Source of the DNA: a virus
Length of the DNA stretch: 64,000 bases
Direction: 5' to 3' (one strand)
Virus genome (UHGV): UHGV-0211740
This document shows, piece after piece, positions 13,286 through 15,999 of the stretch. Made by a program: the position numbers and the translations under genes. The first letter of the stretch is position 1. Each line of letters opens with the position of its first letter. The notes beneath the pieces were generated by a model. It ran no database searches. It was given only the letters and a program-made list of their open reading frames with translations, and had not been told where the DNA came from.

Positions 13286-13569
13286 GAGTTGCTGCACTAC
13301 TTATTATGTGCTTGTTATTATGTGGGTGTACAACCAGCGTTGAGAGAGAATACAAGATTGACCCTCCGGATGTAGGGAGGTTGATTGTTAAACCACCAGA
13401 GGGTGCCATGAAACCACCTGCTAAAGCCGTGCCTTTGAAGAAGGGTGCCCCGGATGCGGTGAATTCTGGCATTATGAGGGATAATAACCTATCTTGCAGT
13501 AATGATAGAGCTAAATTAATCATTTTGCAAGACTATATTAGAACACTGTTTCCAAAGGAGAGAGGTTAA
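13282..13569 (+). CDS. putative o-spanin (Rz1-like lipoprotein)
   Basis: 95 aa; signal peptide with lipobox-like LLLCGC, then Pro-rich mature region (KPPEGAMKPPAKAVP) and C-terminal Cys. Confidence 0.55.
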   Translation: MRVAALLIMCLLLCGCTTSVEREYKIDPPDVGRLIVKPPEGAMKPPAKAVPLKKGAPDAVNSGIMRDNNLSCSNDRAKLIILQDYIRTLFPKERG

Positions 13570-13997
13570 TGTCTAAGATTTACGGACCGTGTTCTGAAAA
13601 GCAGAAGATGATCCTGGAAAATGATGCAGATATTTTGGTAATTGGCGGGGCTGCAGGATCTGGCAAGTCATTCCTCTTGCAGCTAATGCCGCTTAAAATT
13701 ATTGATGACCCGCACAGCTCTGTGGTTATGTTCCGAAGAACAACCCCACAGTTGGAAGGTGAGGGGGGACTATGGCCTAAAGCAGTAGCTATTTATAGTG
13801 ATCTGCCAGAAAACATTAAGCCAAAGTTTAGAGAGAAGGATCATAAGTTCATTTTTCCACGGTTTGATCCGAGCACTGGCAAGTGGGACAGGAGCAAAAA
13901 GGGAGCTGTTGTAAAATACTGCCACATGGAATATGTCCAAGATAAGCTTAACCATCAGGGTTTGGAATACACCATGGTTTGCTTCGATGAGGGTTAA
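13569..13997 (+). CDS. terL: terminase large subunit, N-terminal ATPase segment
   Basis: 142 aa; Walker A GGAAGSGKS, Walker-B-like MVCFDEG at the very C-terminus, then stop; GGAGAGAGG RBS. Confidence 0.7.
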   Translation: MSKIYGPCSEKQKMILENDADILVIGGAAGSGKSFLLQLMPLKIIDDPHSSVVMFRRTTPQLEGEGGLWPKAVAIYSDLPENIKPKFREKDHKFIFPRFDPSTGKWDRSKKGAVVKYCHMEYVQDKLNHQGLEYTMVCFDEG

Positions 13998-14892
13998 TTT
14001 GTAGCTCTCGTAAAACCTCCCTAATTGCGGGGAAATCTTTATTATTGACACCACCAATCTGTCATGGTAACATGATAGAGGCTTCGAAGAGAGATCGAAG
14101 GTATGGTAACAGTGTGTTAATTTAGATAATCCGCAGCGAAGCATCCGAGAGGATGAACGTTCAACGACTAGTCGAAAGACGTAGAATCAAGCGATTCGAA
14201 ACGGGAGGGTGCATGTGTAATACTAAAAAATGTATGGATTGCCAAAGAGTTCTACCTATTGATGATTTCTTTTTATCATCTAAGAGCAAGGATGGATACT
14301 CAGGTACATGCAAGGAATGCTATATGTACTACAGGAAGGGTGGATCTCGTAAAAACAAAAATATGGTTAAGAGAGATGACGCAGCATTGTTTATTCAAGA
14401 CTTGCTGAAGAAAGGTGAACTTTTTGAATGCAAATCTTGTCATAAAAGTATGCTCGCTGATAGTTTTTACACAAAACGTGACTATGGCAAAGTATATCTG
14501 GTTACGAACAGGTGTAAGATGTGTGAAAAGTTTTATCAGATTGAGAAGAAATTTCACATAACAAAAGATGAATACTATCGTCTACTCTCAGATCAAGATC
14601 ATAAGTGTGCCATTTGTAGAATATCTCTTGATGAGTATAGGACGCAAGGGTACAGAGATTTCTTTTGTGTTGATCATGACCATAAAACTGGTGCTGTAAG
14701 AGGGTTGCTTTGTGATAAATGCAACAGAGCTTTAGGCTTCTTCCAAGAAGATGAGGAAACTATTCTTAAAGCGGCAGAATATTTACACATTCATAAGATA
14801 TAGTCTGGTCTGCATGGAGACATGCAGCTGCCTGAAAATGGCGGGGCAAGACTAGCGACCTTGCCCGAACATAAACGACACAATTCGAATGG
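13995..14892 (+). mobile_element. intron-like insertion in terL carrying an HNH endonuclease ORF (candidate group I intron)
   Basis: About 0.9 kb separates two terL segments that lie in different frames; contains a free-standing HNH ORF and local hairpins; boundaries inferred, not demonstrated. Confidence 0.4.
14153..14803 (+). CDS. HNH homing endonuclease (endonuclease VII-like motif)
   Basis: 216 aa; several CxxC pairs and the signature FCVDHDHKTGAVRGLLCDKCNRALG; sits inside the terL interruption; start could alternatively be ATG 14213. Confidence 0.8.
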   Translation: MNVQRLVERRRIKRFETGGCMCNTKKCMDCQRVLPIDDFFLSSKSKDGYSGTCKECYMYYRKGGSRKNKNMVKRDDAALFIQDLLKKGELFECKSCHKSMLADSFYTKRDYGKVYLVTNRCKMCEKFYQIEKKFHITKDEYYRLLSDQDHKCAICRISLDEYRTQGYRDFFCVDHDHKTGAVRGLLCDKCNRALGFFQEDEETILKAAEYLHIHKI

Positions 14893-14910
14893 GAGCAGAT
14901 AGACTATCTG

Positions 14911-15999
14911 ATGTCTCGTTTGCGATCTCAGTCAAAGTATCCATCAAGAATGGTTATCAGCTGTAACCCCGACTCAGAGCATATGCTTGCCAAACTGGTT
15001 AGATGGTGGCTGGACGATGAAGGGTATCCAGATCCGGAGAAATGTGGCAAGAAAAGATATTTTATCCGGCGTGACGGTGAATTTATTTGGGGAGACTCTA
15101 AAGAGGAGTTGATAGAGAAATACACCACAGTTAATGGACTGGGTGTGGAGATCAAGCCAAGACCGTTGTCATTCTCGTTTATAGGCGCAACAATATTCGA
15201 TAATCCTGTCTGCTTGAGAGACAACCCAGAATACCTTGCTTTCCTTGAAGGTCTGCCAGAACTGGAAAAAGCTCAGCTTCTTCATGGTAACTGGTTTGCC
15301 AAACCTGAGGGTGCGAACTACTTTCAAAGATCTTTCCTTCGTGATGCCGACAGCGTACCTTTAGGGTCTGTGTCTTGCAGGGCATGGGATAAAGCTGGAA
15401 CTGAAAGAACTTCAGGTAATAAATTCCCTGACTTTACTGCCAGTGTCAAGGTAAGTAAAGATAGTGATGGATTCTACTACCTGTCAGGAGATTATTGTCC
15501 GGAGAACGTGGATGACGGGAGATATTCCACAGGTCTGGAAGGCAAGTTCTGTAAAAAGGCTGGCGAACGAGATGTGATCATCAGGAAACAGGCGCAGTTT
15601 GATGGTGATGATTGTATAATCGTATTCTCTGTGGACCCCGGTCAGGCAGGTAAGAGTGAGTTCTTAACCTCATCCAGATCCTTGCTCGCCGAAGGTTTCA
15701 GGGTTGAAGAAGACCCAATGCCTTCCAACAAATCTAAACTGACAAGGTTCTCACCTTTTGCCAATCTTGCCCAACAAGGGATGGTGAGGATTGTAAAATC
15801 CAGTTTCCATCCTGATACTTTGGAAGCATTTCTGACTGAACTTGAAAAGTTCAACGGGGAAAGATCAACATTTAACAGAAAAGACGACTGGGCCGACTGT
15901 GTAGCATCTGCGATTAATTTCCTGGAGAAAGAGGAGGTAGCACTGCCTTGTGTGATCCCATCAATATCATCACCTTCTATGTTTAAGCGTTTTATCTAA
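14911..15999 (+). CDS. terL: terminase large subunit, C-terminal segment (rest of ATPase plus nuclease domain)
   Basis: 362 aa; MVISCNPDS (C-motif-like), acidic nuclease-domain residues (VFSVDPGQAGKSEF, DDWADCVASAINFL); frame is open upstream to 14875, so the true exon start may be near 14893. Confidence 0.7.
   Translation: MSRLRSQSKYPSRMVISCNPDSEHMLAKLVRWWLDDEGYPDPEKCGKKRYFIRRDGEFIWGDSKEELIEKYTTVNGLGVEIKPRPLSFSFIGATIFDNPVCLRDNPEYLAFLEGLPELEKAQLLHGNWFAKPEGANYFQRSFLRDADSVPLGSVSCRAWDKAGTERTSGNKFPDFTASVKVSKDSDGFYYLSGDYCPENVDDGRYSTGLEGKFCKKAGERDVIIRKQAQFDGDDCIIVFSVDPGQAGKSEFLTSSRSLLAEGFRVEEDPMPSNKSKLTRFSPFANLAQQGMVRIVKSSFHPDTLEAFLTELEKFNGERSTFNRKDDWADCVASAINFLEKEEVALPCVIPSISSPSMFKRFI

Follow-up and report, generated by a model that had tools for sequence, protein, structure and literature searches.

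A predicted group I intron with a putative homing endonuclease gene in the terminase large subunit gene of a Vequintavirus

What we infer to be a mobile group I intron (13995-14877) encoding a putative homing endonuclease splits the terminase large subunit gene (terL) of a Vequintavirus, an rV5-like coliphage; on this interpretation, to which we give a probability of about 93%, the RNA would be spliced and the element would spread by homing. The DNA analysed, here called the window, is a stretch of 64,000 nucleotides of virus genome UHGV-0211740; its best match and closest relative, OX460980.1, is 97.6% identical and its record carries no annotation. The original prediction had preferred a group I intron, and this preference is supported by the match to the Rfam model, the U·G pair and terminal G of the splice sites, the restored coding sequence, covariation and the presence/absence polymorphism among relatives. 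The intron is an ordinary selfish element. Feature coordinates are collected in Table 1.

Table 1. Features of the interrupted terL gene, in window coordinates (slashes within sequences and between positions mark junctions or paired strands)
Feature	Positions	Strand	Details	Basis
terL exon 1	13569..13994	+	142 codons	ORF list, sequence
Empty site of third terL intron	13961..13962	+	HQG/LQY...	only in metagenomic relative L008
P1	13989..14009	+	GAGGGU/UA (13989-13996) with internal guide UAGCUCUC (14002-14009)	8/8 pairs
Group I intron (predicted)	13995..14877	+	883 nt, IA-like (P7.1/P7.2 present, no P2)	Rfam RF00028; bounds from intronless alleles
TAA stop in frame with exon 1	13995..13997	+	directly 3' of 5' splice site	sequence
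Ribozyme core, 5' half	14016..14208	+		helices checked; Rfam alignment; RNAalifold
P3 5' strand	14016-21	+
P4	14026-31/14130-35	+
P5 with extensions P5a and P5b	P5a 14059-78; P5b 14082-14100	+	P5a with GUAA loop
P6/P6a	14136-60	+	GAGA loop
P7 5' strand	14166-70	+
P7.1	14171-80	+	GUC-GAAA-GAC, GAAA loop
P7.2	14184-97	+	GAAUC-AAGC-GAUUC
P3 3' strand	14203-08	+
Shine-Dalgarno-like GGGAGGG of endonuclease gene	14203..14209	+	also P3 3' strand	sequence; P3 pairing
Endonuclease gene, Endonuclease VII/HNH-type	14213..14803	+	196 aa + stop, in P8 loop (L8)	Pfam, PHROG, PDB
P8 3' strand	14783..14790	+	UUACACAU, pairs with AUGUGUAA (14213-14220)	8/8 pairs
J8/7 and P7 3' strand	14792..14805	+	CAUAAGAUAUAGUC	Rfam consensus AAGAUAUAGUC
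Intron 3' part	14810..14877	+	P9, P9.0, P9.1, ωG14877	helices checked; 3' splice site from intronless alleles
P9	14810-27	+	GAGA loop
P9.0	14830-42	+
P9.1	14844-66	+
terL exon 2	14878..15999	+	373 codons + stop, starts TQFEWEQIDYLMSRLRS	intronless-allele alignment
Empty site of second terL group I intron	15194..15195	+	within ...GAT-I-FDN	comparison with relatives

The original prediction had described a terL ATPase segment that stops right after VCFDEG and resumes downstream in a different frame, and both observations were confirmed. Exon 1 carries the Walker A motif GGAAGSGKS, ends 3' at the Walker B sequence ...MVCFDEG and is collinear with the intronless TerL of phage JeffSchatz; its ORF (13569-13997) matches positions 2-104 of Pfam Terminase_6N. 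Exon 2 encodes the remaining part of the ATPase and the RNase H-like nuclease domain, and the ORF from ATG 14911 to 15999 matches Terminase_6N positions 117-211 plus Terminase_6C. Exon 1, the endonuclease ORF and exon 2 lie in frames 0, 2 and 1, respectively. Both terL frames are closed within the gap, as had been reported, by TAA codons at 13995-13997 and 14872-14874.

Alignment with uninterrupted terL homologs, proposed as a check together with the prediction, fixed the insertion point at FDEG/TQFEW, directly after the Walker B codons. Because intronless alleles read GAT GAG GGC ACG CAG TTC GAA TGG GAG CAG (DEG-TQFEW-EQID) and differ in length from intron-bearing ones by exactly 883 nt, the start of exon 2 is placed at A14878, after ωG14877. 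Excising 13995-14877 reproduces the sequence of intronless relatives codon for codon (DEGTQFEWEQID). The predicted ligated exons join GGU to ACA (GAUGAGGGU/ACACAAUUC) and encode the peptide FDEGTQFEWEQIDYLMSR across the junction; the intronless JeffSchatz terL reads GAGGGCACGCAGTTC at this site. The junction originally proposed, with exon 1 ending at T13994 and exon 2 beginning at 14893 after G14892, was correct at its 5' end, but the 3' splice site lies 15 nt further upstream (G14877/A14878). A 13994/14893 junction is in frame, yet it would delete the five conserved codons TQFEW found in all intronless alleles, and its 510-aa product scores 63.6 bits on Terminase_6N versus 72.6 for the 515-aa product. 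Also ruled out, by the stops in both terL frames, the 883-nt gap and the RNA core, were an intein, a programmed frameshift and ribosomal bypass. Intron-bearing sites read GGT ACA CAA, which gives three synonymous differences from the intronless JeffSchatz sequence. This synonymous-site signature is drawn from 4 intronless and 8 intron-bearing alleles; the latter always have T at position -1, where intronless alleles have C or A. A scan of IMG/VR for intronless junctions yielded only 2 contigs.

The predicted spliced TerL has 515 aa, with Terminase_6N at residues 25-294, unbroken over the junction, and Terminase_6C at residues 394-489 (27.9 bits). The two unspliced halves taken separately score 26 and 28 bits on Terminase_6N, against 72.6 joined. 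By its domains, the spliced product would be a terminase large subunit with a Walker A/B ATPase followed by an RNase H-like nuclease domain; a PDB sequence search with it gave no match at E<0.01. Exon amino-acid identity to relatives is 99-100%, and the exon sequences are under purifying selection.

A covariance-model search for a group I core, the other check proposed, matched Rfam RF00028 at 13985-14827 over the full model (1-253; 44.8 bits, E 7.6e-10). The match was detected with an E-value threshold and falls under the gathering cut-off of 50; at the gathering threshold, Rfam searches of the whole window gave only tRNAs. We attribute the score below 50 to the 584-nt ORF in L8, which depresses it: an ORF-less allele of the same intron reaches 84-85 bits (84.3-84.9), and the diverged ORF-bearing copy L010 reaches 55.8 bits. 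An intronless allele searched with RF00028 gave no match. Helices P1, P3, P4, P6a, P7, P7.1, P7.2, P8, P9 and P9.1 are fully paired, and strong helices and GNRA loops make up a canonical core. Judged from its predicted structure, the insertion is a group I intron. The U13994·G14004 wobble in P1 marks the 5' splice site, and this U·G and five exon pairs are invariant in six diverged copies. P7 (GACUA/UAGUC, 5/5 pairs) is also invariant in the six copies and therefore shows no covariation; the sequence of P8 differs in other lineages, with the stem always at the same place. P10 is weak, with 3 bp (ACA/UGU) and one base unpaired. Subgroup IA is defined by two additional hairpins, P7.1 and P7.2, located after P7 and before the 3' strand of P3 (PMC3984707); the predicted presence of both places the intron in this subgroup. 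In-frame stops after the 5' splice site, such as the one in the window, are described as a frequent trait of group I introns in phages, where they presumably prevent ribosomes from running into the ribozyme while it folds (PMC3984707). The intron also contains a sigma-70-like site (14045-14073), of which the -35 hexamer is not kept in one ORF-less allele; promoter-like sites in the region number 10, against 5.4 ± 2.4 expected from shuffles.

Covariation was assessed in six copies with cores 70-95% identical, which represent only about four independent lineages. In these copies, a hand-built P1-P9.1 model leaves 98.5% of cells paired, versus 36-42% in slid controls, and 18 of 66 pairs are changed on both sides; the observed values were reached in 0/500 shuffles. 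Compensatory changes occur in P3, P5a and P5b, in two pairs of P9 and in four pairs of P9.1. RNAalifold independently found the helices, with 29 compensatory pairs. The predicted helices are accordingly backed by compensatory base changes drawn from these few lineages.

According to the group I intron model, one pre-mRNA would be transcribed across terL including the intron, the RNA of which would fold into a P1-P9 ribozyme. An external guanosine would attack after U13994, held in P1 by the U·G pair with the internal guide, and the freed exon 1 would attack after the terminal G14877, giving an mRNA for one 515-aa TerL. It is conceivable, though we consider it rather unlikely, that the intron needs a phage or host cofactor, or that inefficient splicing slows down or times TerL production. 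Some Bastillevirinae introns were spliced only in vivo, not in vitro, and a “molecular on-switch” was proposed (PMC11878797); P10 is weak, and the long ORF in L8 and the start signals overlapping P3 and P8 could disturb folding. Against this stand the canonical core with its GNRA loops and strong helices, the score of the ORF-less form far over the Rfam threshold, and the fact that no sequence feature demands a cofactor. Such a requirement would refine the group I intron model and is not an exclusive alternative to it.

The original prediction had described a free-standing HNH endonuclease ORF in the third frame. Frame and type hold (Endonuclease_7, His-Me fold), but the ORF is not free-standing, since it sits in L8. 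Its product matches Pfam PF02945 (Endonuclease_7; E 4.3e-21, 75.1 bits versus a cut-off of 23.6), the PHROG “endonuclease VII” (E 9e-33) and, in the PDB, Hpy99I (E 4e-6) and T4 endonuclease VII (E 5e-4). The motifs CxxC...DHDH...CxxCN are intact, CAIC…CVDHDH…CDKCN being aligned to both PDB proteins, and the N-terminal region upstream of the nuclease domain contains two extra CxxC…CxxC modules. T4 endonuclease VII (gp49) and Hpy99I are ββα-Me nucleases that have the Zn-binding CxxC…CxxC and DHDH…N in common with the intron ORF; gp49 is a Holliday-junction resolvase and Hpy99I a restriction enzyme, whereas the domain in the window is intron-encoded, which suggests site-specific homing. The Endonuclease_7 family thus also takes in non-homing enzymes.

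The start codon ATG 14213, also chosen by the BASEL annotators, is preceded by GGGAGGG. A longer ORF from ATG 14153 (216 aa) was rejected; that start lies inside the P6a 3' strand GGAUG (14151-14155), which is kept in ORF-less introns too. The AUG chosen lies in the P8 strand AUGUGUAA and the stop UAG (14801-03) inside the P7 3' strand. The AUG of L010 likewise lies inside P8; in L008, P8 contains a UUG, the called start AUG being in the P3 3' strand. In ORF-less alleles, 14209-14792 is replaced by a short hairpin of ~20 nt. Should the arrangement in P3 and P8 be functional, the intron RNA could either fold or be translated into endonuclease but not both, which would amount to a built-in switch. 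We put forward only tentatively such a fold/translation switch, together with a role of the endonuclease as a weapon against co-infecting Vequintaviruses. The latter draws on the co-circulation of alleles that have no intron, an ORF-less intron or an intron plus endonuclease; if true, the enzyme would cut a rival's essential terL and would not be just a neutral parasite. It is from sequence that we infer splicing, the activity and target of the endonuclease, and any regulatory meaning of the ribosome-binding site in P3 and the AUG in P8.

The intron core is present in 53 of 123 related GenBank phages and the endonuclease ORF in 30 (30/53 of the intron-bearing ones); in about 70 close relatives, TerL is a single uninterrupted protein of 515 aa. 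Such presence and absence among close relatives appears to be a signature of mobility. The same site is occupied in diverged terL genes only 63-79% identical, where the endonucleases are 55-71% identical. Its homing-type context (location in L8, patchy occurrence among close relatives and constant tie to one site) suggests that the ORF most likely encodes a homing endonuclease of the Endonuclease VII/HNH type, with putative activity and target. Its most likely role would be to cut the intronless terL of co-infecting relatives near the conserved site, and recombinational repair would then copy the intron into the cut allele. Alternatively, the intron may splice while the endonuclease does not, or no longer, home and serves as an HNH/EndoVII packaging accessory or a resolvase-like enzyme. 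T4 gp49, a resolvase associated with packaging, belongs to the family, HNH proteins encoded beside terminases serve as packaging accessories in HK97-like phages, and packaging stimulation by terminase-associated HNH proteins was raised in the CB7 paper, citing Kala et al. 2014 (PMC7344957); furthermore, 30 phages have the ORF in intact form, with 96-99% nucleotide conservation. Yet it is missing in 93 of the 123 close relatives, all viable isolates, is frameshifted in one contig, and lies in an intron loop that is a short hairpin in ORF-less alleles. In diverged terL genes it recurs at one and the same insertion point, as would be expected if it were a selfish homing gene. We therefore regard a non-homing role as improbable.

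The other possibility raised originally, a terminase made in two pieces, found no support. Two separate polypeptides (from 13569-13997 and from ATG 14911) would assemble non-covalently and the insertion would stay in the RNA. Both parts are open, the second has its ATG, and many GenBank records list two separate “terminase large subunit” CDSs. However, eleven codons (14878-14910, TQFEWEQIDYL) conserved with intronless alleles lie upstream of any in-frame start, and no start codon was found in the exon 2 frame between TAA 14872 and ATG 14911, nor a convincing Shine-Dalgarno sequence upstream of 14911. The break interrupts the ATPase fold midway, right after Walker B, the insertion holds a full group I core with covariation, and the protein is continuous in the intronless relatives, which together make this arrangement very improbable. 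The stop codon breaking the gene might suggest that terL is a pseudogene and that the genome is defective or wrongly assembled. This reading is effectively refuted by the identical arrangement in 30 plaque-forming phages of independent isolation, among them BASEL isolates on E. coli K-12; the purifying selection on the exons also speaks against it.

The terL intron of this phage group is already known and cannot count as a discovery, contrary to the original expectation: the rV5 terL introns were published in 2013 (Kropinski et al. 2013, Virol J 10:76, section “Introns in terminase”; PMC3606486), and joined CDSs are annotated in GenBank. Phage rV5 (DQ832317, “ORF64ABC”, annotated as a join) belongs to the same genus and has an intron in the same gene at the same first insertion site, FDEG/TQFEW. 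The 5' half of its intron 1 is ~99% identical to the window and the whole mini-intron 94.8%, but it is ORF-less and 319 nt long, versus 883 nt with endonuclease in the window. About 30 GenBank Vequintavirus records (for example HeinrichReichert MZ501073, APECc02, JES2013 and nomo) contain the same intron and ORF, 95-99% identical and with no difference of substance. In the BASEL records, terL is entered as a join of two pieces and a “putative homing endonuclease” is annotated. No RNA data or direct evidence of splicing in Vequintavirus turned up in a literature search.

The group IA2 introns of T4 td, nrdB and sunY (I-TevI/II/III) are what we take to be a close known system. They likewise interrupt a conserved catalytic motif of a protein gene, have an IA-type core with P7.1/P7.2, loop the endonuclease ORF out of a peripheral helix and have a stop codon in frame close behind the 5' splice site. 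The window differs in its host gene, terL, in an endonuclease of the Endonuclease VII/HNH type instead of GIY-YIG (I-TevI/II), and in having the ORF in L8, with the AUG in P8 and the Shine-Dalgarno sequence in P3. Lactobacillus phage LL-H, Pectobacterium phage CB7 and SIOphi also have group I introns in terL, although the phages and endonuclease families differ. Splicing of the terL HNH intron was shown by RT-PCR for CB7, a related Certrevirus (PMC7344957), and splicing of terL introns from Bastillevirinae (SIOphi) has been demonstrated in vivo as well as in vitro (PMC11878797). General features of phage group I introns are reviewed in PMC3984707.

Proper annotation would be one CDS, join(13569..13994, 14878..15999), encoding 515 aa, and not two “terminase” genes. 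As terL is a standard phylogenetic marker, missed introns or nearby gene conversion distort trees. Easily grown coliphages offer a natural series of intronless alleles, ORF-less introns, introns with endonuclease and decayed endonucleases; this series adds no new principle but is a convenient system for the homing cycle and for intron-mediated phage competition. In this series, a single gene has as many as three sites for introns. The second site (15194/15195 in window coordinates), which is empty in the window, is occupied in rV5, HdK5 and PDX by an intron with an I-HmuI-like HNH gene and in A147 by an ORF-less one.

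The terL gene, which encodes the terminase large subunit, is interrupted at 13995-14877 by a mobile group I intron of a typical, already described kind. As the original prediction held, terL is split around a third-frame HNH-type ORF and both of its frames are closed within the gap (TAA at 13995-97 and 14872-74), a picture on which ORFs, frames, stops and Pfam matches agree. The reading frames are 0 for exon 1, 2 for the endonuclease and 1 for exon 2; the 5' ORF matches positions 2-104 of Pfam Terminase_6N, and the interrupting ORF contains an Endonuclease_7 domain (His-Me/HNH-type, E 4.3e-21). 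A stop codon lies immediately 3' of the 5' splice site, as is common in phage group I introns (PMC3984707).

The full length of RF00028, the Rfam group I intron model, aligns to 13985-14827 (E 7.6e-10, 44.8 bits), slightly below its curated cut-off of 50 bits, which is why a gathering-threshold Rfam scan of the window finds only tRNAs. The shortfall arises because the ORF is aligned as an insertion of ~580 nt in the P8 loop. ORF-less versions of the same intron in JohannBauhin, rV5 and A147, whose 5' half is ~99% identical to that of the window, score 84-85 bits, and an RF00028 search of an intronless relative gave no match. Helices were placed on the window, and every one was checked by direct base pairing. 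The proposed group I identity is supported by the Rfam match, the paired helices, the U·G wobble, the terminal G, the intronless alleles and covariation.

Features of the terL region and of the intron fold (window coordinates)
Feature	Position	Remarks
i-spanin gene	12851-13285	overlaps o-spanin gene
o-spanin gene	13282-13569	lipobox LLLCGC; stop overlaps terL start (TAATG)
terL 5' ORF	13569-13997	TerL ATPase N-terminal part; Walker A GGAAGSGKS; ends MVCFDEG, then TAA
Empty site homologous to extra intron of L008	13961/13962	
P1	13989-96 and 14002-09	diagnostic U13994·G14004 wobble at 5' splice site
P3	14016-21 and 14203-08	direct pairing
P4	14026-31 and 14130-35	direct pairing
P5		two hairpin extensions; direct pairing
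P6/P6a		GAGA loop; direct pairing
P7	14166-70 and 14801-05	direct pairing
P7.1 and P7.2		GAAA loop (P7.1); direct pairing; subgroup IA hallmark
P8	14213-20 and 14783-90	direct pairing
Endonuclease gene	14213-14803	196 aa; GGGAGGG upstream; likely start, as in BASEL annotation
P9 and P9.1		GAGA loop (P9); direct pairing
Terminal G	G14877	intron 3' end
terL 3' ORF	ATG 14911 to 15999	Terminase_6N positions 117-211 and Terminase_6C (Pfam)
Empty second-intron site	15194/15195	within ...GAT-I-FDN motif
Portal gene	16100-17656	3' of terL

Our helix model was scored on an alignment of six intron copies, which represent only about four independent lineages, with the ORF interiors taken out. Standard pairs fill 98.5% of cells in the six copies, compared with 36-42% after the partners have been shifted by 1-3 columns, and both-sided changes occur in 18 of 66 pairs (six copies, about four lineages), compared with 1-5 in the shifted controls; these values were not attained in any of 500 shuffles. 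P3, P5a, P5b, P9 and P9.1 show compensatory changes, and P4, P6a, P7 and the portion of P1 formed by the exon are invariant across the six copies. P8 forms a stem in every lineage, though its sequence is wholly different in each. RNAalifold, which is blind to the helix model, found 29 compensatory pairs and recovered every helix of the model but the P7 pseudoknot.

The boundaries are fixed by the intronless JeffSchatz allele, whose alignment to the window stops at 13993 and picks up at 14878, the two differing in length by 883 nt. This allele reads ...GAT GAG GGC ACG CAG TTC GAA TGG GAG CAG..., so exon 1 ends at T13994, as originally predicted, and exon 2 starts at A14878, after G14877. The predicted exon 2 start at 14893 was misplaced, the 3' splice site lying 15 nt further upstream; the junction 13994/14893 is in frame, yet it drops TQFEW, a stretch encoded by all intronless and all spliced alleles. 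The correct annotation of terL is join(13569..13994, 14878..15999), with a predicted spliced product of 515 aa (...FDEG/TQFEWEQIDYL...). This product matches Terminase_6N as one continuous domain (72.6 bits, versus 63.6 for the earlier junction and 26 and 28 for the separate halves). A pseudogene is an unlikely reading. Production of the terminase as two polypeptides, one from each ORF, is also unlikely, mainly because the earliest start open to the second ORF comes after the TQFEWEQIDYL codons, which are therefore translatable only after splicing.

The C-terminal half of the intron-encoded protein aligns to Hpy99I and T4 endonuclease VII, with CxxC…DHDH…CxxCN kept, and PHROGs labels the ORF endonuclease VII; a role as a packaging accessory is improbable. 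A longer ORF of 216 aa from 14153 was rejected, as its start falls within the conserved P6a 3' strand (GGAUG, 14151-14155). The translation signals of the gene lie within the ribozyme (14203-14220, 14783-14805): the 3' strand of P3 doubles as its Shine-Dalgarno sequence, and the AUG falls within P8 and the stop codon within P7, an arrangement by which ribozyme folding and endonuclease translation may compete and be mutually exclusive. The AUG is inside P8 also in the diverged ORF-bearing copy L010. A sigma-70-like promoter match at 14045-14073 (TTGACA-17-TAACAT, upstream TG, 10/12), in the P5 extension 5' of the endonuclease gene, is probably due to chance because its -35 hexamer is not kept in the ORF-less JohannBauhin allele.

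Among 123 GenBank phage records that match the terL region, 53 contain the intron core and 30 the endonuclease ORF; ~70 have no intron at this site, and ~23 have an ORF-less intron, whose P8 position is taken by a short hairpin (AAGCG-loop-CGCUU) in place of 14209-14792. Remoter endonuclease homologues on metagenomic phage contigs (71%, 55% and 46% identity) likewise lie between terL halves. In two of these contigs, L008 and L010, as well as in the ORF-less IMG/VR copy L017, the insertion falls at the identical codon boundary, although their TerL flanks share only 63-79% and their intron cores 70-84% identity with the window. Another IMG/VR copy (L018, 3300010279_000001; intron 1639-2522, 884 nt, minus strand of the locus) has a frameshifted endonuclease ORF, broken into 89 and 120 aa, which looks like a decaying copy, though it may be a sequencing error. 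This pattern of presence, absence and decay is the one expected of a homing element. The 46%-identical Endonuclease VII-type gene (L012, ENA ERZ23486258 scaffold_4794, 2700-3600) belongs to another group I intron, whose insertion point is 6 nt upstream of that in the window (WD/ETTHF versus DEG/TQF); the same Walker B target is thus associated with related endonucleases at neighbouring positions. Around the site, intron-bearing alleles read GGT/AC(A or T) CAA (8/8) and intronless ones GG(C or A)/ACG CAG (4/4; alleles in L003, L006, L022 and L023 versus L004-L019, around window 13992-14883). The differences are synonymous, at -1, +3 and +6; the U·G pair needs the T at -1, and those at +3 and +6 may reflect P10 pairing, protection from the endonuclease or co-converted markers.

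The terL introns of rV5 were described in a section entitled "Introns in terminase", in a paper that thanks D. Shub for defining the intron (Kropinski et al, 2013; PMC3606486), and the GenBank record DQ832317 annotates rV5 terL as a three-piece join, "ORF64ABC". In BASEL genomes, the CDS is joined over exactly the window's intron and the ORF is labelled "putative homing endonuclease". rV5 has an ORF-less intron 1 (the window-type site, FDEG/TQFEW) and a second one that carries an I-HmuI-like HNH gene, whereas the window has an endonuclease-bearing intron 1 and an empty second site; HdK5 has both introns and both endonucleases, unlike the window, which has intron 1 only. The second intron, with its I-HmuI-like gene, measures ~982 nt in rV5, HdK5 and PDX, and is ORF-less in A147 (87.5 bits on Rfam); relatives show all combinations of the two introns, with or without ORFs. 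L008 (Logan SRR30536706 contig, 2486-2763) has one more ORF-less group I intron, of 245 nt, just upstream of intron 1; only a micro-exon of 33 nt (LQYTFIGFDEG) separates the two introns. Skipping of internal exons of this kind was reported for SIOphi terL (PMC11878797). Group I introns in terL are also documented in LL-H (PMC3606486), in CB7 by RT-PCR (PMC7344957), and in Bastillevirinae in vitro and in vivo (PMC11878797); for Vequintavirus itself, our literature search turned up no experiment that shows splicing directly.

Over 13300-16100 the window shares 95-98% identity with the genomes of ~120 Vequintavirus (rV5-like) coliphages, and the top match is OX460980.1 (97.6%). Genes are ordered i-spanin, o-spanin, terL and portal, and the overlaps of the spanin and terL genes suggest that lysis and packaging genes are translationally coupled. 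A terminator-like hairpin (16049-16068) separates terL from the portal gene. Just 5' of the lysis and packaging genes lies a cluster of six tRNA genes (11660-12468; Arg-UCU, Tyr, Ser-UGA, Thr, Met, Pro), in which a sub-threshold Rfam "tRNA-Sec" match (11936-12023) is a long-arm tRNA-Ser. Finally, 18 UNVERIFIED "Campylobacter phage" GenBank records (MG0656xx, e.g. MG065644.1) are ~95% identical here to E. coli rV5-like phages, and the host named in them looks doubtful, owing to contamination or mislabelling.
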